64,000 nt of DNA. It comes from an uncultured Rivularia sp. GTDB taxonomy: Bacteria; Cyanobacteriota; Cyanobacteriia; Cyanobacteriales; Nostocaceae. The notes beneath the pieces are model-generated. The model did not search any database. It was not told where the DNA came from and saw only the letters and a list, made by a program, of their open reading frames with translations. The first letter of the stretch is position 1. Each line of letters begins with the position of its first letter. The stretch is taken from assembly GCA_963665115.1 (NCBI GenBank), contig OY762007.1, positions 6,784,001 through 6,848,000 on the forward strand. Reading direction: 5' to 3'. Positions 14,556-61,634 of the stretch are shown in pieces. The position numbers were made by a program, and so were the translations under genes.

Positions 14556-16043
14556 ATGTATTTGACGCAAAAAAAATATCATCAGGCACCAATCACTTTT
14601 CGTCTGAAAATTCCTTATCGTGCAGGGGAAAAGAAGGGTACTTATCAAGCAAAACAGCTATTGCCGGGATGTCCGAAAATTCCGCCATCTCTGCAATTGC
14701 GAGATTACCAAAAGCAAGCTGTAAATAATTGGTTTGCGAATAATGGTAGGGGTACTTTAAAAATGGCGACTGGTAGCGGTAAAACTATCACGGCACTGGC
14801 AATTACTTGGGAATTATATAGTCAAATAAATTTGCAAGTATTGTTAGTGGTGTGCCCTTACCGTCATCTTGTCACCCAATGGGCGCGGGAATGCGAAAAG
14901 TTTGGTTTAAAGCCGATTTTAGCTTTTGAAAATGTCCGCACTTGGCAAACGCAACTTTCGGAGCAGCTTTACAATGTGCGTTCTAGTTCTCAACAGTTTC
15001 TCACAATTGTTACTACTAATTCAACGTTGATAAGTGATGGTTTCCAATCTCAATTAAAATACTTTCCTGAAAAAACTTTGATTATTGGCGATGAAGCGCA
15101 TAATTTGGGTTCGCCAAAGTTAGAAGAAAGTTTACCGCATAGTGTTGGATTAAGGTTGGGGTTATCTGCCACACCGGAAAGATATTTTGATGAGGTAGGA
15201 ACGGTGGCGGTATTTAATTATTTTGGTGCGGTTTTGCAACCGGAATTTACTTTGAGAGATGCGATTACTCAAGGTGCTTTGGTACGCTATCTTTATTATC
15301 CGATATTGATAGAATTAACTGAATCTGAAAGTCTTGCTTATGCCAAATTGACGCGGAAGATTGGGCGGGTTTTGATGTATAAGCAGCGAGAAAGTGGCGA
15401 TTTGATTAATATTGAAGATAATGAAGATATCAAATCTTTATTAATTCAGCGTGCAAGGTTGGTAAGTGCCGCTGAAAATAAATTAAATGCTTTGCGGGAA
15501 TTGATGTTAAGTCGTCGCGAAACTACTCATACATTATTTTATTGCAGCGATGGCTCTCAAGAAGCGGAAGGGCGTGCGAATTTACGTCAATTGAAGGAAG
15601 TAACTCGCATTTTAGGAGTCGAGTTGGGTTATAGAGTTAGTACCTATACGGCAGAAACTTCTTTGGTAGAGAGAGAAGCTTTAAGAAGTCAATTTGAAAG
15701 TGGAGAATTACAAGGTTTAGTTGCAATTCGCTGTCTGGATGAAGGAGTTGATATTCCAGCGATTAAAACAGCCGTGATCTTAGCAAGTTCGAGCAATCCC
15801 CGTCAATTTATCCAGCGGCGGGGAAGAGTTTTACGTCCTCATCCAGGTAAGGAACGTGCAACTATATTCGATATGATTGTACTGCCTCCAGATTTAGATC
15901 GAAAGACTTTAGAAGTGGAGCGTAATTTGTTGAGAAAGGAATTGCGGCGCTTTGTTGAGTTTGCCGATTTAGCTGACAATGCTGGTGAAGCAAGGATGAA
16001 ATTGCTGGATTTACAAAAGCGGTATGGATTGATGGATGTTTAA
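14556..16043 (+). CDS. SF2 (DEAH, type III Res-like) helicase associated with DNA phosphorothioation; PbeA-like
   Basis: LRDYQ, MATGSGKT, GDEAH, GLSATP, LDEGVDIP, FIQRRGRVLR; context next to dnd genes; no nuclease domain recognised. Confidence 0.85.
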   Translation: MYLTQKKYHQAPITFRLKIPYRAGEKKGTYQAKQLLPGCPKIPPSLQLRDYQKQAVNNWFANNGRGTLKMATGSGKTITALAITWELYSQINLQVLLVVCPYRHLVTQWARECEKFGLKPILAFENVRTWQTQLSEQLYNVRSSSQQFLTIVTTNSTLISDGFQSQLKYFPEKTLIIGDEAHNLGSPKLEESLPHSVGLRLGLSATPERYFDEVGTVAVFNYFGAVLQPEFTLRDAITQGALVRYLYYPILIELTESESLAYAKLTRKIGRVLMYKQRESGDLINIEDNEDIKSLLIQRARLVSAAENKLNALRELMLSRRETTHTLFYCSDGSQEAEGRANLRQLKEVTRILGVELGYRVSTYTAETSLVEREALRSQFESGELQGLVAIRCLDEGVDIPAIKTAVILASSSNPRQFIQRRGRVLRPHPGKERATIFDMIVLPPDLDRKTLEVERNLLRKELRRFVEFADLADNAGEARMKLLDLQKRYGLMDV

Positions 16044-16387
16044 TTTGGGAATTGGGCATTGGGCAATGCGATTTTCTCAAAAAAATTTATTATTTTATTT
16101 ATTGTGAGAATAAAAATGCCCTTTATGTGGGATAATTAGATATAGAGATAAATACTTTTATAATGGAGAGAAAGTAATTTTTTTGAAGTGGCTAATATTT
16201 CCATTATGATAAAATACTCTATATAAAAATAATATCAGAAAAGCGTCTTTAAAATAAAAAATATTTTTTTGTGGGATATGTTAAAAAGCGATAAATAATT
16301 TGAGTTATAACGTCGCATTTAACGCACCACTTTAATAATAAGTTATATATAAGATTGTTATCTTTTAGTAATACACTAATCCTGGAT

Positions 16388-16449
16388 GGTGCGTTAGATG
16401 CATCAAAAATATCTTTTAGATTCATAAACAATCGTGCATCTTACACACC
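16388..16449. repeat. REP-like hairpin of the GGTGCGTTA...TAACGCACC family
   Basis: ggtgcgttagatgca ... tgcatcttacacacc; half copy taacgcacc at 16320-16328; relatives at 18944-19006 and 19152-19163. Confidence 0.65.
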
Positions 16450-16652
16450 TTACAAATTATATTTATTTTTGTATTAAAAATTGTTTCAGCAAAAAGCTTT
16501 AACAAAAGGATTTACAGTTTTAAATAATACATTTGTAAGAGAGTTGACTATTAATAATCAGCCTTGAAAGGATAATTAAAGCAAACATAGTTACAGTGAG
16601 TTTACGGATAACAGAGTATACCTACTCCAGGTAAAATATAGCTTAAATTGCT

Positions 16653-16841
16653 ATGTTAAAAACCGTGATGAAAAAACAGCATAATATAGATGAAGTACAA
16701 CAACCAATAAAGTGCGCTTCACCAGAAGTACGGCAAATTATCGAGCAAGTATGGCATTTAGAAAAAAGTAGACTTGATAAAAAAAGTTTTGGTCATATTA
16801 ACGAAGATATTTTAGCAATCGTTAAGGAAGCTGTAAAATGA
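16653..16841 (+). CDS. 62-aa protein translationally coupled to the ATPase (PbeB-like position)
   Basis: Stop overlaps the ATPase start (ATGA at 16838-16841); helical EVRQIIEQVWHLEK...EDILAIVKEAVK. Confidence 0.75.
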   Translation: MLKTVMKKQHNIDEVQQPIKCASPEVRQIIEQVWHLEKSRLDKKSFGHINEDILAIVKEAVK

Positions 16842-18901
16842 AGCTGACTTCTATCAAGCTTTGTAACTTTCGTTCTTTTTACGGTAAAACTTGTGAAATA
16901 ACTCTTGCTGGGACAAGCTCAAACAATACTACTATTATTTACGGTAATAATGGTGCGGGTAAAACGAGTTTGCTGAATGCATTTACATGGGTATTATACG
17001 AAAAGTTTAGTGCAGCTTTTGCTTCGATTGACCAACTTGTAAATAAAAGAGCGATCGCCGAAGCGAAAATTGGGCAAGGTGTGGAATGTTGGGTAGAGTT
17101 AGCGTGGGAACACGACAGCAAACGCTATCGAGTCAAACGTCAATGTCGAGTTTACAAACATGAAAATGATATTGACGTTGGTAAAACAGAAATATATATG
17201 CAGGTAGCGGGAGATGACGGTAGATGGTATCTTCCACCGCAACGACCGGAAGAGATTATCGGACAAATTTTACCTGCTAGTTTACATCAATACTTTTTTT
17301 TCGATGGCGAAAGAATTGAAGAAATAGTTCGTTCGGATAAGAAGGCGGAAATTGCGGAAGCTACTAAAATATTTTTGGGTGTAGAGGTAATAAATCGTTC
17401 AATTCGACATTTACAAGAAGCCAAGAAAAGTTTAGAAAATGAGTTGAGAATAATCGGTGATTCGGAAATTAAAAAGTTATTGAAACAGCAGGGTAAAATT
17501 GAGCTTGAAATTGAAATAATTAGCAAACGTCAGCAAGAAATTATTAAAGAATTAGAATATCAAAATACTTTTAAAAAAGAAACTAGTAAACGTTTGCGGG
17601 AATTGAATGCGGCAAAGGATTTACAGGAAAGGCGGCAGGAATTAGAAAAACAAAAAGCGTCGCATCAAGATAATTTACGACAAACTAGAGAAACTATCAA
17701 AAAAGCCATCTCCACACGCGGCTATACAGTATTGTTACCGGAAACAACAGTACAGTTTCGAGAAATTATCGATAATTTGAAGCAGAAGGGAAAGTTAACT
17801 ACAGGGATTTCGCGAGAGTTTATTCAAGAGCTATTAAAATCAAGTAGCTGTATTTGCGGTACGAGTTTGAATGAAGATACAACTCGCGTAAATGTCGAAA
17901 CCTGGTTAGAGAAAGCAGGCTCCTCGGAAGTCGAAGAAACAGCAATTAGAATCAGCGCTCAAGTTGATGAAATTGACAAACAAGTAGCATTATTCTGGGA
18001 AGAAATTGATAAGGAACAAGCTAGAATTAGTCAGTTAAGACAGGTTATTGCTGAAATTGAAGCAGAGTTAGACAATATTGAAGAAAGATTAAGAAAAGAT
18101 CCTAGTGAAGAGATTAGAAGTTTACAAAAGCGTTTAGATAAAATTGAAGAAAAAATTACAGAATTAACTTTAGAGCAAGGTGCCAACCAGCAAAAAGTAA
18201 TTAACCTAAAAACCGAATTAGAAAGTTTAAATAAACAAATATCCAAGCAGAAATTAAACGAAGAAAAGCAGATATTAGCACAGCGTCGCATCAGCGCCAC
18301 ACAAGACGCGATCGATAGATTAACTCAAGTCAAAGTTTTGCAGGAAGAGCAATTCCGCTTGCAATTAGAAAAACGAGTGCAGGAGATATTTAGCGAAATT
18401 TCCTTTACACCTTATATTCCCACAATCAGCGAAAAATACGAATTAACGTTAATAGAAAATACTTCTGGTTTAGCAATGCCAGTTGCAGCATCTACCGGAG
18501 AAAATCAAGTTCTCAGTTTATCGTTTATTAGCAGCATTATCGATCGAGTGCGGGATTGGAGTCAAAATAAAATGCTCATGGTAGCCGATAGCAGCACGTT
18601 TCCAATTGTTATGGATTCACCTTTTGGAAGCTTAGATGTAATTTACCGAAAGCACATAGCTCAAATCATTCCGAAATTAGCAAATCAATTAATCGTATTA
18701 GTTACTAAAACGCAATGGAGGGGTGAAGTAGAAGACGAAATGTCATACCGAGTTGGTAGAGAATATGTTTTGACTTATTATTCTTCCAAACCCGATTGCG
18801 AACAAGATTTTATTGAATTAAGCGGAGACAGATATATGCTGGTAAAGCAAAGCCCAAATAATTTTGAATATAGTGAAATTGTGGAAGTTGAGAGAGAGTA
18901 A
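16838..18901 (+). CDS. Rad50/SMC-like ABC ATPase with central CxC motif; DndD paralog, PbeC-like
   Basis: NFRSF, Walker A GNNGAGKTS, YFFFDGE, long coiled coils with CICG at the apex, signature ASTGENQ, Walker B VMDSPFGSLD. Confidence 0.9.
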   Translation: MKLTSIKLCNFRSFYGKTCEITLAGTSSNNTTIIYGNNGAGKTSLLNAFTWVLYEKFSAAFASIDQLVNKRAIAEAKIGQGVECWVELAWEHDSKRYRVKRQCRVYKHENDIDVGKTEIYMQVAGDDGRWYLPPQRPEEIIGQILPASLHQYFFFDGERIEEIVRSDKKAEIAEATKIFLGVEVINRSIRHLQEAKKSLENELRIIGDSEIKKLLKQQGKIELEIEIISKRQQEIIKELEYQNTFKKETSKRLRELNAAKDLQERRQELEKQKASHQDNLRQTRETIKKAISTRGYTVLLPETTVQFREIIDNLKQKGKLTTGISREFIQELLKSSSCICGTSLNEDTTRVNVETWLEKAGSSEVEETAIRISAQVDEIDKQVALFWEEIDKEQARISQLRQVIAEIEAELDNIEERLRKDPSEEIRSLQKRLDKIEEKITELTLEQGANQQKVINLKTELESLNKQISKQKLNEEKQILAQRRISATQDAIDRLTQVKVLQEEQFRLQLEKRVQEIFSEISFTPYIPTISEKYELTLIENTSGLAMPVAASTGENQVLSLSFISSIIDRVRDWSQNKMLMVADSSTFPIVMDSPFGSLDVIYRKHIAQIIPKLANQLIVLVTKTQWRGEVEDEMSYRVGREYVLTYYSSKPDCEQDFIELSGDRYMLVKQSPNNFEYSEIVEVERE

Positions 18902-18958
18902 TCAATAAACAATGAACAATTATCAATAAACATTATGTTGTAAGGTGAGTTACGGCAC

Positions 18959-19231
18959 GAGAAACTTTGATTTTAAGTTATAAGTTAGAAAATGTCGTAA
19001 CGCACCAATATTCGGATTAAAAAACCGCAGAGGCGCAGAGAGTGCTGAGGTAAGAATTAAAGAGAGTTGGTAATTTTAAACTAACAGAATATCTAATATT
19101 TAATTTAAAGAAGCAAAGAAAATTTGATTTTAGGTTATGACTTATGAAATACCGTAACGCACCAATATTCGGATTAAAAAACCGCAGAGGCGCAGAGAGC
19201 GCTGAGGAAGAGTGAAAGAGAGTTGGTAATT
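18959..19231 (+). repeat. Imperfect approx. 115-bp direct repeat (two copies) between the ATPase and its partner gene
   Basis: cgtaacgcaccaatattcggattaaaaa(a)ccgcagaggcgcagagag(t/c)gctgagg...aaagagagttggtaatt in about 18959-19075 and 19117-19231. Confidence 0.85.
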
Positions 19232-19257
19232 GATAATTGATAATTGATAATTGAAAA

Positions 19258-19728
19258 ATGGCTGAAACTGGAAGAATAAGGGTTGCAAAAGATAAGGCTG
19301 AGTTAGTACAAAGTTTAACATCTTGGAATGGTGCAACGGGACCTTTTCAAACTTTTGCTGACGTGGTTGTTTTTGCGGCTACTTTGGGTAAAAAGCACAA
19401 TCGCCGCGTACCTTTGGGAGAAATTTCTAAAAGGGAACCTTCACCAATTAAAGTCGAAACTTTTGCTTCAATGGGTTATGACTGGGTGATTAAATTGATC
19501 GGAATTACCGAAACGAAAGATATAAAAGTACTTTCGGTAACTGAGGAAGAATCTCAAACTGAACGTAATAATATTTTTGAAGAATATACGAATGGTGGTT
19601 TGGAAATATTGCAAACTGAATTGCGAGGTGCGGTAGATTATTCGGAAAGGCTGTTGTTGATGTTGAGTGCGGAAAGGTTTAAGGAAGATAAGCAGGGAGA
19701 ATTTGATTTGAGTCGGTTTTTGTCTTGA
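19258..19728 (+). CDS. DNA phosphorothioation-associated protein 4-like small protein (PbeD-like position)
   Basis: RIRVAKDKAELV, GPFQTFADVVVFAA, IFEEYTNGGLEIL; follows the ATPase. Confidence 0.8.
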   Translation: MAETGRIRVAKDKAELVQSLTSWNGATGPFQTFADVVVFAATLGKKHNRRVPLGEISKREPSPIKVETFASMGYDWVIKLIGITETKDIKVLSVTEEESQTERNNIFEEYTNGGLEILQTELRGAVDYSERLLLMLSAERFKEDKQGEFDLSRFLS

Positions 19729-19740
19729 TGATAATTAATA

Positions 19741-19797
19741 CGCCCTCACCCTCGAAGGGTGGGGCTACAATTACAAAGCCCACCTGCGTGGGCTAAA
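19741..19797 (+). repeat. Left arm of a 57-bp inverted repeat pair (partner 22022-22078)
   Basis: cgccctcaccctcgaagggtggggctacaattacaaagcccacctgcgtgggctaaa. Confidence 0.8.
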
Positions 19798-19804
19798 TCA
19801 AATT

Positions 19805-21817
19805 TTATTCGGTATCTTCAGCATCTATCTCATCTTCAACAGATACTTGTTTCGTCAACAACTCACTATAAATTTCGGGCAAACCAGCTACTAATACAGC
19901 AGAAAATCTGTCACGCACCATATCCTCTTTTTTTTGCTCGCCCATTTTTTCATAGTCTTTGCCATAAAATGTATTAGTGTCAAAACCTTTATACAATGCT
20001 TTGTAAGCATCCGTACAATTTGACCACTGGACTTTATTTACATCTGCTCTGAAAAAATTTAATAGCTTTCGTCTGGATAACATCGGATAACCATTTGCAG
20101 CGTCTATTTGGACTTTACGAGAACCAAAATACCATAAGCATAGTAAGTAAAATATTCTATCTTCTACTGTTTTCGCAACCTTAATTTTGTCATTACCAGG
20201 ATTTATCGCTACAAATGTCCACAAACGATATGGGTAATTTGCTAAATTAACATCTACCTTCAAAATACCTCGATCGTAAAGCCGATTTAGAAAATCTATA
20301 ACATTATTTATATTGCCTAAACTTTCATCTGTTCTTGTATTTTTAAATTCTATAAGTTTTCCTAAACGAACTATAGCTTTTTGAAATATAACTTTGAAAG
20401 CCCACTGGTTTTCTTTCAAAGCATTAATAGCTTTGCTATGGCTAATTATTTTTGTTTGGTGCCAATCACTATCTCTTGCATTTTCCTGCTCTTTAATCGT
20501 TCCTTTGTGTTTACTTGTCTGAGCTTGGAATTTGCCAAAAGTACCTTCAATTAAATCGTTATCGCGGGCATATTCAAGCAAGTTATTGTAAGGTTTGAAA
20601 TCCAGTAAAAGCTTAATTAACCAAGGACGAAAGTTAACTTCAAAGCCCTTTATTGCTGAACTCAGATAATTCTGTGGTAATCGAGAAAAAGGTGTTTCTG
20701 GCTCTTCATCTTCATCGCAGTAATCTTCTTGATAATAAGTGAAGAGAGAGCGTCCTTCATACTCAACTGGTTGTCCGTTTATGCCGAGTGCATCGTCAAT
20801 ACTTTTTATAAACCCTTCAATTTGCTTCTTTTCCATAGGATCGCGTGGTGGTTTCAAATCCAAAGTTGCAGAAACCAAAAGATCCAAATTTACAAGTGAA
20901 TTCAGATAGTAGGAACTATCAAATTTGACAGAATCATCTTGCCAACGTACTAAGGAAAGAGGAAGTCTATCGTCCGCATCTTCACCTGTTTTCTCTGTAA
21001 TCAGCGTTCTGACGCACTGTGCGTTAATACTTTGATCGTCAAGAATTAGCTCTCTAGCTTTATCAACTGTCTTAGCATTTTTATTCAAGTCAGTAAATAA
21101 TTCACGAGCAATTCCTCGAATGGAATAATCCGCTTCACTTTGAATATTTTGAAACCCTGCATCAGGATGAAGTAAAACAAATAAAATTGGAATCTTAGTT
21201 TGTTTTTCCGTGGTATGAAGAGTACCACCTCTAAATTTTGGATCTTCACGAAAAGTACGAAGCGCCCAAAGACGATGTTGTCCATCTACAGCTACTGGTA
21301 AAATCCGCTCCTTATCCCAACGAAGCCGCGCTTGTGTTCCAACAGAAACGAATTGAACACCACCAAAGTTAGCAATTTTAGCTTGGGGTTGGTTCCATTG
21401 TGCGTCATCAGTATCACTACCATCGTAAGGAATAGGGGGAGAATTAGTATCTGGAGAATTATCAAAGGTATCTTGAATTTTTTCGTCATCTCCCTTTGGC
21501 ATCAATACTATAGTAATAGCATTGAAAAATTTTAACTTTTTAGGATCGAGAAGATAACCTTTAACAATATCGTCTCCTACTCTCTTCTCATCAATTTCTC
21601 GTTGAAAAAGTTCTTTCAGCGACCATTTTGTATCGATAGAAGCGGGAATCTGCTCGGCAATCTTCAGTTCATCAATTGCTCGGTTAATTTCAATTAAAGA
21701 AAGAAAATAAGGAAGCGCTATACCTTCGGATAGAGTATAAGTTCCAGTTAAACCATAAAGAGGTTTATTAAAACTTGCTTTTTCTTCGTCATTCGAGAAT
21801 ATAGGCATTTTTATCAC
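19805..21817 (-). CDS. DGQHR / DndB-like domain protein, 670 aa with long C-terminal extension
   Basis: LFQREID, KFFNAITIVL, VAVDGQHRLWAL, ARELFTDLNKNAKTV; start GTG 21817 or ATG 21808. Confidence 0.88.
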   Translation of the reverse strand: MIKMPIFSNDEEKASFNKPLYGLTGTYTLSEGIALPYFLSLIEINRAIDELKIAEQIPASIDTKWSLKELFQREIDEKRVGDDIVKGYLLDPKKLKFFNAITIVLMPKGDDEKIQDTFDNSPDTNSPPIPYDGSDTDDAQWNQPQAKIANFGGVQFVSVGTQARLRWDKERILPVAVDGQHRLWALRTFREDPKFRGGTLHTTEKQTKIPILFVLLHPDAGFQNIQSEADYSIRGIARELFTDLNKNAKTVDKARELILDDQSINAQCVRTLITEKTGEDADDRLPLSLVRWQDDSVKFDSSYYLNSLVNLDLLVSATLDLKPPRDPMEKKQIEGFIKSIDDALGINGQPVEYEGRSLFTYYQEDYCDEDEEPETPFSRLPQNYLSSAIKGFEVNFRPWLIKLLLDFKPYNNLLEYARDNDLIEGTFGKFQAQTSKHKGTIKEQENARDSDWHQTKIISHSKAINALKENQWAFKVIFQKAIVRLGKLIEFKNTRTDESLGNINNVIDFLNRLYDRGILKVDVNLANYPYRLWTFVAINPGNDKIKVAKTVEDRIFYLLCLWYFGSRKVQIDAANGYPMLSRRKLLNFFRADVNKVQWSNCTDAYKALYKGFDTNTFYGKDYEKMGEQKKEDMVRDRFSAVLVAGLPEIYSELLTKQVSVEDEIDAEDTE

Positions 21818-26038: not shown

Positions 26039-27632
26039 ATGACTCTTGCCCAACAATCAGAAAAAAGCCAGCCAGCACCCGTTACGGTAATTGATAAAAT
26101 TCCTCTTATTACCAAAGAAATCCAGGAATTATATTTACTAGACGAAATACCTTGGATTATTGGCGTGTCTTGGGGTAAAGACTCCAGCACAATTTTGCAA
26201 CTTATTTGGAATGCGATCGCAACTCTACCACCAAAGAAACGCGGTAAAACAATTCACGTAATTACTACGGATACGCTGGTAGAAAATCCTATCGTTTCGG
26301 CATGGGTTCGCAATTCGATGAAGTTGCTGGGATCTGCTGCGAAAGAAAAAGGAATGCCCATCGAGCCTCATTTGCTGTTGCCAGTAATTCAAGATACATT
26401 TTGGGTGAATTTAATCGGCAGGGGTTATCCGGCTCCCCGCAATCAGTTTCGCTGGTGTACGCCGCGTTTGAAAATTAATCCAGCTAACCAGTTTATTCGC
26501 GAAATGGTTAGAGCTAACGGTGAAACAATTTTGGTTTTGGGTACTCGCAAAGCCGAAAGTTCGAGACGAGCCGCCACAATGCAAAAGCATCAAGCGGGTA
26601 GAATCCGCGAGCGTTTGAGTCCGAATGCCAGTTTACCAAACTCTTTGATTTATACTCCTATCGAAGATTGGAGCAACAACGATGTGTGGATTTACCTCAA
26701 TCAATGTGAAAATCCTTGGGGTGGTAATAATAAAGATTTATTTTCGATGTATCGCGGTGCGACGGCAGATAACGAATGTCCTTTAGTTGTCGATACTTCT
26801 ACCCCCAGTTGCGGCGATTCGCGCTTTGGTTGTTGGGTTTGTACGATGGTGACAAAAGATAAATCAATGGAAGCGATGATTCAGAATGATGAAGAAAAAG
26901 AATGGATGCAGCCGCTTTTAGATATTCGTAACGAGCTAGATATTCAAGACGACCATGATAAGCGCGATTTTCGCAGAATTTGGGGTAAAGTACAGCTTTT
27001 CGAGCGTAATAAAGATGGTAAAACATCAGTGCAGCCAGTACCAGGGTCCCTATACAAAATATTGGCGCGAACATTGGTTAACGAGGGTATTGTCAGCGCA
27101 AACCCAAGCTCGTCAAACTGCGCCGGAAGATATGCGCGATATTACCTTAATTACCCCAGATGAACTGAGTGAAATCAGGCGCATTTGGTTAGAAGAAAAA
27201 CACGAATTTGACGATAGTTTACCCCGGATTTATCAAGAAGTGACAGGAGAATCTTTTGTAGACTCCCGCCCCGGTGCGGGTTACAGCTTATTAGGCAGCG
27301 ATGAGTGGGCAGTATTAGAAGAAATCTGCGACAACGACGCGATGCATTTAGAATTGATGGCGAAACTGTTAGATACAGAACGGCAATATCGTAAAAAATC
27401 GCGTCGCGTCGGAATCTACGATGCCTTAGAAAAATGTTTTGAAACAAGCTCCCGAACTCAAGAAGACGCAATTAAAAACGCCCACTTTAAACGTGACTTA
27501 AAAGATGCTGCTGGCAAAGGTGATATTGACAAAGTAAAACAGTTGACTTTAGGCGACGTTACGGCAGAAAAAGCAACAGAAAAACCAGAAAAATCTAAAA
27601 CTTGGGCAGATAAAAAATTTAAAAAACAATGA
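26039..27632 (+). CDS. dndC: DNA phosphorothioation sulfurtransferase DndC (apparent +1 frameshift at 27044-27046)
   Basis: PAPS-reductase-like SWGKDS, DTLVENP, GRGYPAP, RWCT, LGTRKAES, CPLVVD, SCGDSRFGCWVC; removing one G gives VPGPYTKYWREHWL. Confidence 0.93.
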
Positions 27633-29825: not shown

Positions 29826-30011
29826 GGGATTGGGCATTGGAGAATAGTTAGGAGTAGCAAGTCGCAAGTAGTGAGTAGCAAGTAGCAAGTAGCAAGTAGC
29901 AAGTAGTGAGTAGCGGGTTATGAACTAATTTCTCTTTGTCTCCCCATCCCCCATGCCCAATGCCCAATCCCCAATGCCCAATCCCCCATGCCCAATCCCC
30001 AACTTTAAATC

Positions 30012-30398
30012 ATGGAATCACCAATCGAACGCATCCGCTTATCCCAGACAGGCAAAGATCAACTGTTAAAACTCAGGCGCTTTACCAAAATCGATCAGTG
30101 GAATATCCTGTGTCGCTGGGGGTTTTGTCGTTCCCTCGCAGAAAAAAGTATTCCTTCTCCCGTACCGATACCCCAAGATAGTAACGTCGAATTAAACTGG
30201 CGAATATTTGGCGGTGAAATGTCCGATATGCTGCTTTTAGCCCTCAAACAACGCTGTTATAACGATGGTTTGGGAACCGATAAAGAAACCCTCGTAACCC
30301 AATTTCGGCTACATCTACATCGCGGCATCGGCTATTTAGCAGGAGATCCAAATATTAAGAAAATTGAAGATTTGATTGAATTAGCCACTGAGAATTAG
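30012..30398 (+). CDS. dndE: DNA sulfur modification protein DndE
   Basis: RIRLSQTGKDQLLKLRRFTKIDQWNILCRWGFCRSL...FRLHLHRGIGYL. Confidence 0.93.
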   Translation: MESPIERIRLSQTGKDQLLKLRRFTKIDQWNILCRWGFCRSLAEKSIPSPVPIPQDSNVELNWRIFGGEMSDMLLLALKQRCYNDGLGTDKETLVTQFRLHLHRGIGYLAGDPNIKKIEDLIELATEN

Positions 30399-30413
30399 GT
30401 AGGAGATGGGGAA

Positions 30414-30646
30414 ATTATTAAAGTAGTGAGTAGTGAGTAGTGAGTAGTAAGTAGTAAGTAGCGAGTAAAAATAGACGGGCAGAAGTACCGACATTTATGA
30501 CAATAATAAAAAAGTGATTTACTCTCTACTCCCTACTTCCTACTTCCTACTTCCTACTCCCTACTTCCTACTCCCTACTTCCTACTCCCTACTCCCTACT
30601 CATAACTCCTAACTATTTCCAATCCCCAATGCCCAATCCCCTACTC
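30414..30646 (+). repeat. Composite dispersed element: heptamer arms plus conserved 60-bp core (copy 1)
   Basis: Core GTAAAAATAGACGGGCAGAAGTACCGACATTTATGACAATAATAAAAAAGTGATTTACTC at 30465-30524. Confidence 0.9.
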
Positions 30647-30680
30647 ACCCTTCACTCTTCTATGAGATAATAATTGCCAA

Positions 30681-32165
30681 TTGCCAATTGGATTTGTAGA
30701 GATGCCCGAAGTTTTAGCAATTGAACGCCACAGAGCAGCAATTTACCGCACAGACTTATCTCGTCCGACGAAATTGGCATTGGAATTTGAAATTATTAAT
30801 AAGAAGACTACGTTTTTTGATTATGGATGCGGACATGGCGGTGATGTCAAAAGATTGGCAGAGATCAATGTAAAAAGTGCGGGTTGGGACCCTTATTACA
30901 ATCCCGATGCCCGTTTGAAGTCTGCCGATGTAGTCAATCTCGGTTATATTCTTAACGTTATTGAAGATACCGAAGAACGGCTTGAGAGCCTTCAAAATGC
31001 GTGGAAACTCGCGAAGAAAGTATTAATAGTAGCCGCTCAAGTATTAGTAAGTACCATTAGTAGCAAAAATCAATTAGCTTATGGCGATGGTGTATTAACT
31101 CGTCGCAATACTTTTCAGAAATACTACGAACAGGGAGAACTTAAAAAATATATTGATAGCACTTTAGAAGTTGATGCCGTACCTGTAGCGTTAGGCATAT
31201 ACTTTGTGTTTCGCGACGAACAAGAAAAAGAAAATTTTCGCGTCGAGTGCTATCGTTCCCGAGTAATTGCGCCGAGAATTATTCTTGCGACTAAAAAATA
31301 TGAAGACTGCAAACAGGAATTAGCTCCATTAATTGAATTCTATACAAAACGCGGCAGATTACCAGTTGAAGGAGAATTAGAACCAGAAGCTTTATCAAAA
31401 ATACTGGTTGAATTTACCAGCATTCGCCGCGCCTTCAAAGTAATATTGCAAGCAACAGACGAAGCCGAATGGGATGCGATCGCCTACCGTCGTTCATTAG
31501 ACATCCAAGTTTATCTTGCCTTGGTGCATTTTGAAGAAGAACGTCCCAGATTCTCAGAGCTACCCAAGGAAATCCAATACGACATCAAAGCCTTATTCGG
31601 TTCATATCGGGATGCTTGCGAAGTAGCTGACGAAAAGTTATTTAGTTTAGGCGAACCTAAAATAATTCAAAAAGCCTGCTACAAAGGTAAAGTTGGTAAG
31701 CTTACACCAAGCGCTCTTTACGTCCACATGAAAGCTTTGTGGGAACTAGAACCATTGCTACGAATCTACGAAGGCTGCGCCAGTCGTGTATTTGGACGGC
31801 CAGAAGAAACAACACTGATCAAACTTCACATCAAAGAACCAAAAATATCTTACCTGTATTACCCCGATTTCGATACCGATGCTCATCCAGCCTTAAAAGC
31901 AAGCATAGTAATCGACTTACAAACATTCAAAATCACTCGCGGCGACTACTCCACCAGAGAAAATCCGCCTATACTGCACCGAAAAGAAACATTTGTAACA
32001 CCCAAATATCCACTCTACAAACAATTTGCCCAACTCACCCAACTTGAAGAAGAAGCAGGATTATATGAAAATCCCCGCGAAATCGGAACCCTTAAAGGCT
32101 GGCAAAAATGTTTAGAAGAACATGATGTAGAAATTAAAGAACATCAAGTTAGAAAAAGGGAATAG
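30681..32165 (+). CDS. DNA phosphorothioation-associated putative SAM-dependent methyltransferase
   Basis: ERHRAAI, FFDYGCGHG (motif I), GWDPYY, VVNLGYILNVIE, TFQKYY, YPDFDTDAHPAL, NPPILHRKETFV; follows dndE; start TTG 30681 or ATG 30702. Confidence 0.88.
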   Translation: MPIGFVEMPEVLAIERHRAAIYRTDLSRPTKLALEFEIINKKTTFFDYGCGHGGDVKRLAEINVKSAGWDPYYNPDARLKSADVVNLGYILNVIEDTEERLESLQNAWKLAKKVLIVAAQVLVSTISSKNQLAYGDGVLTRRNTFQKYYEQGELKKYIDSTLEVDAVPVALGIYFVFRDEQEKENFRVECYRSRVIAPRIILATKKYEDCKQELAPLIEFYTKRGRLPVEGELEPEALSKILVEFTSIRRAFKVILQATDEAEWDAIAYRRSLDIQVYLALVHFEEERPRFSELPKEIQYDIKALFGSYRDACEVADEKLFSLGEPKIIQKACYKGKVGKLTPSALYVHMKALWELEPLLRIYEGCASRVFGRPEETTLIKLHIKEPKISYLYYPDFDTDAHPALKASIVIDLQTFKITRGDYSTRENPPILHRKETFVTPKYPLYKQFAQLTQLEEEAGLYENPREIGTLKGWQKCLEEHDVEIKEHQVRKRE

Positions 32166-32546
32166 GGGATTGGGCATTGGAAATAGTTAGGAGTAGGAAG
32201 TAGGGAGTAGGGAGTTATGAGTAGGAAGTAGGGAGTAGGGAGTAGGGAGTAGGAAGTAGGGAGTAGAGAGTAGGAAGTAGGAAGTAGGGAGTAGGAAGTA
32301 GGGAGTAGGGAGTAGGAAGTAGGGAGTAGGAAGTAGGGAGTAGGAAGTAGGGAGTAGGAAGTAGGAAGTAGGGAGTAGGGAGTAGGGAGTAGGGAGTAGG
32401 AAGTAGGGAGTAGAGAGTAAATCACTTTTTTATTATTGTCATAAATGTCGGTACTTCTGCTCGTCTATTTTTACTCGCTACTTGTTACTCATTACTCATT
32501 ACTCACTACTCACTACTCACTACTCACTACTCACTACTTTAATAAT
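32161..32546 (-). repeat. Composite dispersed element, copy 2 (inverted)
   Basis: Core at 32415-32474 is the reverse complement of copy 1 with one mismatch; longer heptamer arm. Confidence 0.9.
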
Positions 32547-40733: not shown

Positions 40734-42348
40734 ATGGCTAAGCCAAAAACCTATTACGTTTGCTCTGAGTGTGGTGCGGAAACTCCTCAATGGTTGGGTA
40801 AGTGTCCGGCTTGCAACACCTACAATTCTTTACAAGAGGAAATTGCCGTACAATCCTCAACGGATATACCTTCTCGGGGTGTGGGTGCTTGGCACTCTCA
40901 GATGAGTAAGAAGAAAACCTCCAATAAACCAGCTAAGCCACGAGCATCTTTAAAACTTGACCAAATTAGCGATCGTCAAGTTGAGCGTTGGAGTTCTGGT
41001 TATGGTGAGTTAGACCGAGTTTTGGGTGGTGGAGTGGTTCCGGGTTCTATGGTATTAATTGGTGGCGACCCCCGGTATTGGTAAATCTACTCTGCTATTG
41101 CAAGTATCAAATGCATTGTCTCAACAGTATCGCATTCTTTATATCTCTGGAGAAGAATCTGCACAACAAGTTAAGTTAAGGGGTTCGCGTTTGGGAGTTG
41201 CTCAGAAAGAGCATGAAGAAGCTAACGCCAATGGTGCAGTTACAGTATCAGAAAAGACGATAGAGGAGAAAAATGGAAAGATTACGGTAGTAGAAGAGAC
41301 GAAAAGTAGAGAAGAAAAAGTTAAATCTGCTAAGGTCAATAGCGATTTATATATCTTACCCGAAACAGATTTAGAAGAAATTTTAAAGGAAATCGAGTCT
41401 CTCAGACCAAATTTAGCAGTAATTGATAGTATTCAAACGGTATTTTTTCCAGCGTTAACTTCTGCACCAGGTTCGGTGGCACAGGTGCGCGAATGTACTG
41501 CGGCTTTGATGAAAGTTGCAAAGCACGAAGACATCACCATGCTAATCGTAGGACACGTTACCAAGGAAGGAGCAATTGCAGGTCCCAAAGTTCTGGAACA
41601 CTTGGTTGATACGGTGCTGTATTTTGAAGGAGACAGGTTTGCTTCCCACAGACTATTAAGAACCGTAAAAAATCGTTTCGGCGCTACCCATGAAATTGGT
41701 ATTTTTGAAATGGTGGCGCATGGTTTGCGAGAAGTCCCCAACCCCAGCGAATTATTTTTAGGTAGTCGTGATGACCCCGCACCGGGAACTGCTATTGTGG
41801 TAGCTTGCGAAGGTACTCGTCCGATAGTAGTAGAATTACAAGCTTTAGTAAGTCCGACTAGTTACACTTCTCCGCGTCGAGCTTGTACCGGAGTAGATTA
41901 TAGTCGTTTGGTGCAAATTTTGGCAGTGTTGGAAAAACGTGTCGGAATTCCCATGTCTAAGCTGGATTCTTACGTCGCTTCTGCTGGAGGGTTAAGCGTA
42001 GAAGAGCCAGCAGTCGATTTAGGAGTTGCGATCGCAATTGTTGCTAGTTTCCGAGATCGAATTGTAGACTCCGGTACCGTATTAATTGGTGAAGTTGGAT
42101 TGGGGGGACAAGTGCGATCGGTATCGCAAATGGAATTACGGTTAAAAGAAGCAGCCAAACTAGGATTTACGCGAGCAATTGTTCCCAAAGGACAGAAGTT
42201 TCCCGAATTAGATATAGAAATTTTGCCAGTTTCCAAAGTTATAGACGCAATTATTGCAGCAATTCCCCAGCAGACTTTGACGGATGAAGATTTAGAAATG
42301 GATGATATTGATATGGAAGATATTGAAATAGAAGATATGGAAGATTGA
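40734..42348 (+). CDS. radA: DNA repair protein RadA/Sms (apparent +1 frameshift at 41069-41073)
   Basis: CSECG..CPAC zinc finger, Walker A GGDPGIGKST restored by removing one C, KNRFG, Lon-like C-terminus. Confidence 0.95.
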
Positions 42349-61395: not shown

Positions 61396-61634
61396 AGGGG
61401 ACATTATTAAAGTAGTGAGTAGTGAGTAGTGAGTAATAAGTAATGAGTAACAAGTAAAAATAGACGGGCAGAAGTACCGACATTTATGACAATAATAAAA
61501 AAGTGATTTACTCCCTACTCTCTACTTCCTACTCCCAACTCCCAACTCCCAACTCCCAACTCCCTACTCTCTACTTCCTACTTCCTACTTCCTACTTCCA
61601 ACTCCCTACTCCCTACTCCCTACTCCCTACTCCC
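61396..61634 (+). repeat. Composite dispersed element, copy 3
   Basis: Core at 61454-61513 identical to 30465-30524; same heptamer arms with different copy numbers. Confidence 0.9.

Follow-up and report, generated by a model that had tools for sequence, protein, structure and literature searches.

A dispersed heptamer-associated repeat brackets a phosphorothioation-associated putative methyltransferase gene as an inverted pair in an uncultured Rivularia

The putative methyltransferase gene that lies next to dndE in an uncultured Rivularia sp. is flanked by two inverted copies of one intergenic repeat, which is dispersed over the genome in about 50 copies. Comparing these copies with each other and with related genomes, we consider it likely that the left copy arose by local copying or homogenisation, without crossover, between nearby heptamer scaffolds that are inverted to each other and match the element in polarity. 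The original prediction had proposed an invertible or mobilisable segment with possible phase variation of a modification gene; a programmed, mobilisable or phase-variable cassette is not supported. The feature is real and the core of its explanation is ordinary, and what is modestly new is a bias of copying towards inverted neighbours, together with concerted evolution of the partners.

The inverted pair and the gene it encloses

The window (the whole stretch of 64,000 nucleotides that was analysed) belongs to a genome, here called G000, of one contig with 8.69 Mb and a GC content of 38%. The 60-nt core at 30465-30524 does recur inverted, as originally noticed, being identical to the reverse complement of 32415-32474 at 59 of 60 positions, with the sole mismatch at core position 14 (30478 versus 32461). 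The gapless inverted repeat covers 193 nt, of which 176 match (91%; 30422-30614 and 32325-32517), and the similarity was rightly said to run through the heptamer arms and their flanks, where the outer AT-rich anchors (30414 and 32546) and the inner tails (about 30606-30643 and 32158-32193) match as well. The two copies had been called near-identical, which holds for the sequence of core and arms but not for the lengths: the right copy exceeds the left by 21 nt in its outer arm, and its inner arm takes about 230 nt against about 90 nt. Nor is the core unique, as had been supposed, for BLAST finds 53 matches in the genome at E<=0.003, 18 of them at 94% or more over at least 55 nt, and the left core is identical (60/60) to a copy at window 61454-61513. 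The two copies of the dnd pair are reciprocal best matches among 52 copies, and they alone in the genome share a 27-nt word that runs from the core end into the first arm units. The features are listed in Table 1.

Table 1. Features of the bracketed segment and related features in the window
Feature	Position in window	Strand	Remarks
dndE, upstream neighbour	30012..30398	+	TIGR03184 128 bits, PF08870
Left copy: AT-rich anchor and outer purine-rich heptamer arm	30414..30464	+	joined to dndE by contigs of 4/4 runs
Left copy: 60-nt core	30465..30524	+	consensus type of largest subfamily; loop of predicted hairpin
Left copy: inner pyrimidine-rich heptamer arm and scaffold tail	30525..30643	+	closest in sequence to those of right copy
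Extended -10-like motif, putative own promoter	30663..30671	+	within bracketed segment; conserved among congeners
Putative methyltransferase	30702..32165	+	TIGR04096; conserved ATG 30702, ORF open from TTG 30681
Right copy: scaffold tail and long inner heptamer arm (~230 nt)	32158..32414	-	tail overlaps stop codon
Right copy: core	32415..32474	-	one private substitution; found also at orthologous site of G007
Right copy: outer heptamer arm and AT-rich anchor	32475..32546	-
Third copy, unpaired	61404..61630	+	core 61454-61513, 60/60 versus left core

The enclosed gene is a DNA phosphorothioation-associated putative methyltransferase by family assignment, as originally read: in a profile search its product matches TIGR04096 over the full length of the model with 662 bits against a cut-off of 150 (E 3.9e-199), and dndC, dndD and dndE precede it in this order. 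Its start was set by start alignment among the congener loci. Of 27 genomes of the genus, 24 contain a match to TIGR04096 above the cut-off. Inserts of about 1.9-2 kb separate dndE from the methyltransferase gene at L027 (G017) and L068 (G185), and in G010 the gene occurs with no dndE in the 6.7 kb upstream. A longer form of TIGR04096, with open frames of about 700-920 aa and an additional copy of the C-terminal region, is present at L071 (G182), L077 (G008) and in more distant genomes; it does not adjoin dndE at the two loci examined, and both forms are present in G008.

Several further observations concern the surrounding locus. The dndC gene (26039-27632) is broken by one extra G at window 27044, which is absent from the contigs of X1, X2 and X4, where the frame is intact, and present in X3 and in the G003 assembly, while the extra base is missing in 7 of 8 aligned relatives. 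Either the same sequencing error has recurred, or the frameshift is real at strain level and would switch off phosphorothioation. More frameshifts in normally intact genes, namely radA (window 40734-42348), rodA/ftsW (L033:4033-5245) and the methyltransferase genes of G003 and G007, suggest indel errors of single-contig assemblies. Upstream of dndBCDE, window 14556-21817 contains a PbeA-like gene, whose match spans the C-terminal two thirds of the model only, a PbeC gene and a gene for a divergent DGQHR protein of 670 aa, and is likely a PT-dependent Pbe defence module.

The element and the non-random pairing of its copies

The 53 matches give 52 copies once one partial tandem duplicate is dropped. 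Nearly all of them share one layout, that is, a purine-rich scaffold, an AT-rich anchor, a heptamer arm, the core, the complementary heptamer arm and a pyrimidine-rich scaffold. The scaffolds consist of tandem 7-mers of variable copy number in intergenic DNA and are of STRR type, the name given to heptamer arrays of heterocystous cyanobacteria. The RNA of the left copy is predicted to form a hairpin of -72.6 kcal/mol (z -6.8); consensus folding of the 51 distinct cores gives a terminal 5-bp stem only, with an energy of about 0, and a search of Rfam found nothing at gathering score, plant miRNA hairpin models staying below threshold (31.5 versus 85 bits). By crude ORF calls, 18 of the 53 copies lie in convergent gene gaps (background 16%) and 3 in divergent ones (background 24%), and those in tandem gaps have no strand preference (18 versus 14).

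The core is present in 4 of 18 congeners and in none of 12 more distant genomes, being abundant only in G007, and the exact core motif occurs in none of 150 other genomes of the family; the element is a lineage-restricted intergenic repeat confined to a few congeners. At 12 sites where a filled and an empty state were compared by eye, the element takes the place of the middle of a pre-existing heptamer scaffold, and its strand agrees with the scaffold polarity in all 40 scorable copies (12 were unscorable). Other non-periodic units are held by the heptamer scaffolds of G000 too, among them a palindromic one with 41 sites and two others with 23 and 16 sites, and these may be further families resembling the small dispersed repeats (SDRs). 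At G000:C1:4902496-4902610 and 4110456, truncated or tandem-duplicated copies run into other sequence and were possibly interrupted by larger insertions.

The copies are not scattered at random. Among 52 copies, 6 neighbour pairs lie within 2.5 kb where 0.75-0.89 are expected, and 8 within 5 kb where 1.5-1.75 are expected, with P<=0.00025 under both the uniform and the heptamer-site nulls. Up to 12 kb there are 10 pairs, the expectation being 3.6-4.2. Moreover, 9 of the 10 pairs within 12 kb are inverted, versus 17 of 41 distant neighbours, and the single direct close pair is made up of unlike subfamilies. These excesses bear out the original view that the bracketing is more than coincidence. 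In 6 of the 10 close pairs the best matches of a copy include its partner, against 0.45 by permutation, a value of 6 being reached in 0 of 20000 permutations. Scaffold polarity goes along with filling: within 2.5 kb, 5 scaffolds of opposite polarity are filled and 2 unfilled, versus 1 filled and 11 unfilled of the same polarity (post hoc Fisher p=0.0095; p=0.04 within 5 kb).

Ordinary heptamer sites have no inverted-neighbour bias at any distance (34 versus 38 within 2.5 kb), which rules out a general inverted homogenisation of all heptamer sites, and some element-specific cause thus remains unexplained. The other cores in heptamer sites form too few close pairs for a bias to be judged, and the GC skew of the genome offers no usable replication axis.

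It is unlikely that the pair results from two independent insertions of an abundant repeat which happened to fall on either side of the gene. The genome-wide count of the core, proposed earlier as a check, does establish a multicopy sequence (52-53 copies, 18 near-identical), the left core is of the consensus type and 3 of the 10 close pairs combine unlike subfamilies, all of which would suit coincidence; the excess of pairs argues against it, however, as do the inverted bias, the reciprocal-best similarity of the two copies and the 27-nt word private to them. At the level of the family, chance is already largely refuted.

Inverted pairs in G000 also bracket purB, rodA/ftsW, an ABC ATPase, a glycosyltransferase and mixed gene blocks, and all 7 alike pairs are collinear with the relatives. 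Since such pairs surround housekeeping genes, nothing singles out the methyltransferase. At G000:C1:1416354-1416878, an inverted pair 466 nt apart encloses an apparent gene remnant, and the relatives have about 1.6-1.9 kb more DNA at this site, which indicates a deletion inside the pair.

History of the pair and orientation of the gene

In G007 the right copy is present at the orthologous site and the left scaffold is of the empty type, while neither copy is found at the dnd locus of G001, G003 and the other congeners examined. Of the 7 alike pairs of G000, 4 are represented in G007 by a single member, 1 by both members and 2 by neither, and G001 and G003 have no copies. The four genomes G000, G001, G003 and G007 are each about 4% apart, and informative sites group G000 with G001 at 217 positions, with G003 at 99 and with G007 at 92, by which G007 does not appear clearly as the sister of G000; the choice between gain and loss therefore rests on parsimony over the empty sites. 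On this parsimony the simplest reading is that the left copy was likely gained from the right one. At 60/60 the left core agrees fully with the genome consensus and the 61454 copy, against 59/60 with the right core, and hence the donor is not identifiable from the core by itself. A variant of the inner tail is common to both copies and the right site of G007, and occurs also at the empty left site of G011 and at 2 other loci of G000. In metagenomes, no same-species contigs were recognised by flank pattern, and the core is present at 0 of 80 dndE loci.

A second lineage points to concerted evolution of inverted partners. Both copies of the purB pair in G007 share two substitutions, which occur in 2 of the 14 matching G007 copies and in none of the 18 G000 copies, and the purB pair of G000 has the consensus at both positions. 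The copies of G007 that lie within 5 kb of each other form one direct and two inverted pairs, with alike partners in a single one of the three, so that on these incomplete copy lists the inverted-pair bias is weaker than in G000.

Close inverted pairs with private shared variants, together with matched empty sites in genomes 4% apart, indicate short-range recombination between inverted scaffolds, which is directly testable. In the process we propose, the right copy would be the donor and the oppositely oriented heptamer scaffold across the gene the recipient, and gene conversion or replication template switching between these nearby scaffolds would serve as the route. The element would be copied first and homogenised afterwards, with no crossover, and the enclosed gene would keep its orientation. 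For neighbours in direct orientation, either fold-back pairing would not be possible or deletions would arise and be purged. There is a precedent in yeast, in which the arms of inverted repeats homogenise with or without inversion of the spacer, according to the accessible parts of two reports (PMC8604942, PMC8748988). The methyltransferase would then be a bystander, and an effect, if any, would more probably concern mRNA structure than gene orientation, because each copy is predicted to form a long hairpin.

A transposase could instead have driven a miniature element (MITE/REPIN-like) to hop locally, or could have moved composite transposon ends that carried the gene, which we regard as improbable. 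Scaffold middles are replaced at the 12 filled and empty sites compared by eye, where neither fixed ends nor target duplication was seen, and plasmids and viral contigs hold no match to a parent element. The presence of the element is indeed patchy among genomes about 4% apart, and the genome has 10 Y1_Tnp matches, 9 of them over the cut-off, but none of the 10 is flanked by the element or lies within 7 kb of a copy, the nearest being about 7 kb away. Besides, the gene has not moved, and replicative intramolecular transposition would invert the enclosed DNA, of which none is inverted.

The orientation of the gene was compared among relatives, as the original prediction had suggested, and a single orientation was found. 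It is co-directional with dndE in all 20 informative congener regions out of 24 examined; the count leaves out G010 (no dndE on the stretch), G008 C74 (contig end), and G182 and G008 C213, which have a longer homologue of about 53% and no dndE. It is likewise co-directional in all 37 metagenome loci that carry it, the other 43 of 80 dndE loci being left out as the gene is absent. The compared congener and metagenome loci are without one or both copies and thus fix the ancestral orientation only; the methyltransferase gene stands at its ancestral locus and in its ancestral orientation. All 7 alike pairs of G000 and the purB pair of G007 are in ancestral order as well, which at even odds for each pair would have a probability of about 1 in 256, a rough figure as assemblies give the majority state. 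A scan of 33 plus 9 window ORFs for Pfam families of recombinases or transposases found none; it covered those of at least 150 aa save one antisense overlap and speaks to linked enzymes only.

Whether a flip would affect expression depends on the putative promoter. In 18 of 22 congener loci the motif TGnGATAAT is found within the segment, 30 nt 5' of the conserved ATG, against a genome background of 0.0045 per 100 nt, and it is retained even at congener loci whose remaining spacer differs. The sigma-70 two-hexamer scan did not call it, and scans for sigma-70 promoters and terminators gave chance level, with none within the element. If the motif is a promoter, a flip would carry it along, and would likely not silence the gene. 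The supposed uncoupling from dndCDE transcription is accordingly doubtful, the more so as dndE and the gene stand about 2 kb apart in two congeners.

That the segment is a phase-variable inverton, flipping at a useful rate and switching the methyltransferase on and off, is then very improbable. The geometry does permit inversion, for a complete gene is enclosed by a 193-nt inverted repeat of 91% identity, and concerted evolution implies contact between inverted partners; in yeast, half of the fork-induced inverted-repeat recombinants carry an inversion, as stated in the accessible part of PMC8748988. To this extent the segment may be called invertible, as first proposed, but the gene is unmoved and the scanned window ORFs include no recombinase. 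Phase variation itself finds no backing in the single, ancestral orientation, in a repeat dispersed in some 50 copies (53 matches) and not specific to the dnd locus, in the housekeeping genes bracketed likewise, and in a putative promoter that would move with the gene. The methyltransferase is probably not an on/off switch. We hold it equally far-fetched that a mirror-copying repeat makes ordinary genes into recombinase-free invertible cassettes, flipping in more than about 1% of molecules within filaments, which if true would mean heritable heterogeneity beside a phosphorothioate defence locus.

Finally, the duplication of one copy by assembly or polishing can practically be dismissed, for in spite of the assembly frameshifts in dndC, radA and rodA/ftsW and the lack of a record spanning the whole element, the right copy is present in G007, neither the cores nor the arm lengths of the two copies are the same, and in 4 of 4 runs, which belong to one study and may include the source sample, contigs extend from dndE into the left outer arm. 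Within 29972-30443 the contigs of X1 and X2 have 0 differences, and the core contig in X1 has about 15 times the single-copy depth; by these joints and this depth the left copy is real at its outer end and the core is multicopy. Run contigs end inside the repeat and cover the stretch up to the left core, joints within repeats were not counted as evidence, and runs with small word shares were left out. Run X4 contains a divergent strain that is likewise rich in the element.

Relation to known repeat systems

No published description of the element or of its pairing was found in the literature searched, to which the original paper of Elhai et al. 2008 did not belong. The phase-variation candidate is probably a false lead, and screens for invertons need controls for copy number and neighbours. 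The pairs also give a tractable handle on an old question, namely how heptamer-associated repeats spread in heterocystous cyanobacteria without a known transposase.

Intergenic heptamer repeats occur in Nostoc and Xanthomonas, according to the accessible part of PMC4692102. Like the STRR arrays, the scaffolds here are intergenic tandem 7-mers beside gene ends, whose unit number varies between close relatives and whose complementary arms are able to form hairpins. Unlike them, the element has a conserved non-periodic core of 60 nt with subfamilies, and pairs form between its copies with whole genes in between (0.5-12 kb), whereas the ordinary heptamer sites of this genome do not pair in this way. 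The units of SDRs reportedly measure 21-27 nt, and some of them have conserved structure with compensatory changes. By description, the core here is longer, at about 60 nt, and has no conserved internal structure. The SDRs of Nostocaceae (Elhai et al. 2008, cited in PMC4390886 and PMC5861425) resemble the element as short, lineage-restricted and recently spread non-coding units within heptamer arrays, although the one insertion context compared, SDR5 in HIP1, does not fit it.

The element fails the tested features of REPIN, MITE and inverton. REP sequences and REPINs with RAYT, as far as the accessible text of PMC3116915 goes, are also extragenic, hairpin-forming, enriched between convergent genes and arranged as inverted doublets, but the partners of the element are separated by whole genes. 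The epigenetic invertons of hsdS (PMC7672463, accessible part) have in common with our case a modification-related gene between inverted repeats, and differ from it in that here no linked recombinase was found, the repeat is dispersed genome-wide and one orientation is seen. A parallel in process is the homogenisation of inverted repeats, in which, by what is available of PMC8604942 and PMC8748988, the arms converge and a flip of the spacer is unneeded; those are studies in yeast, whereas here the process is inferred from comparative genomics and would act across spacers of kilobases.
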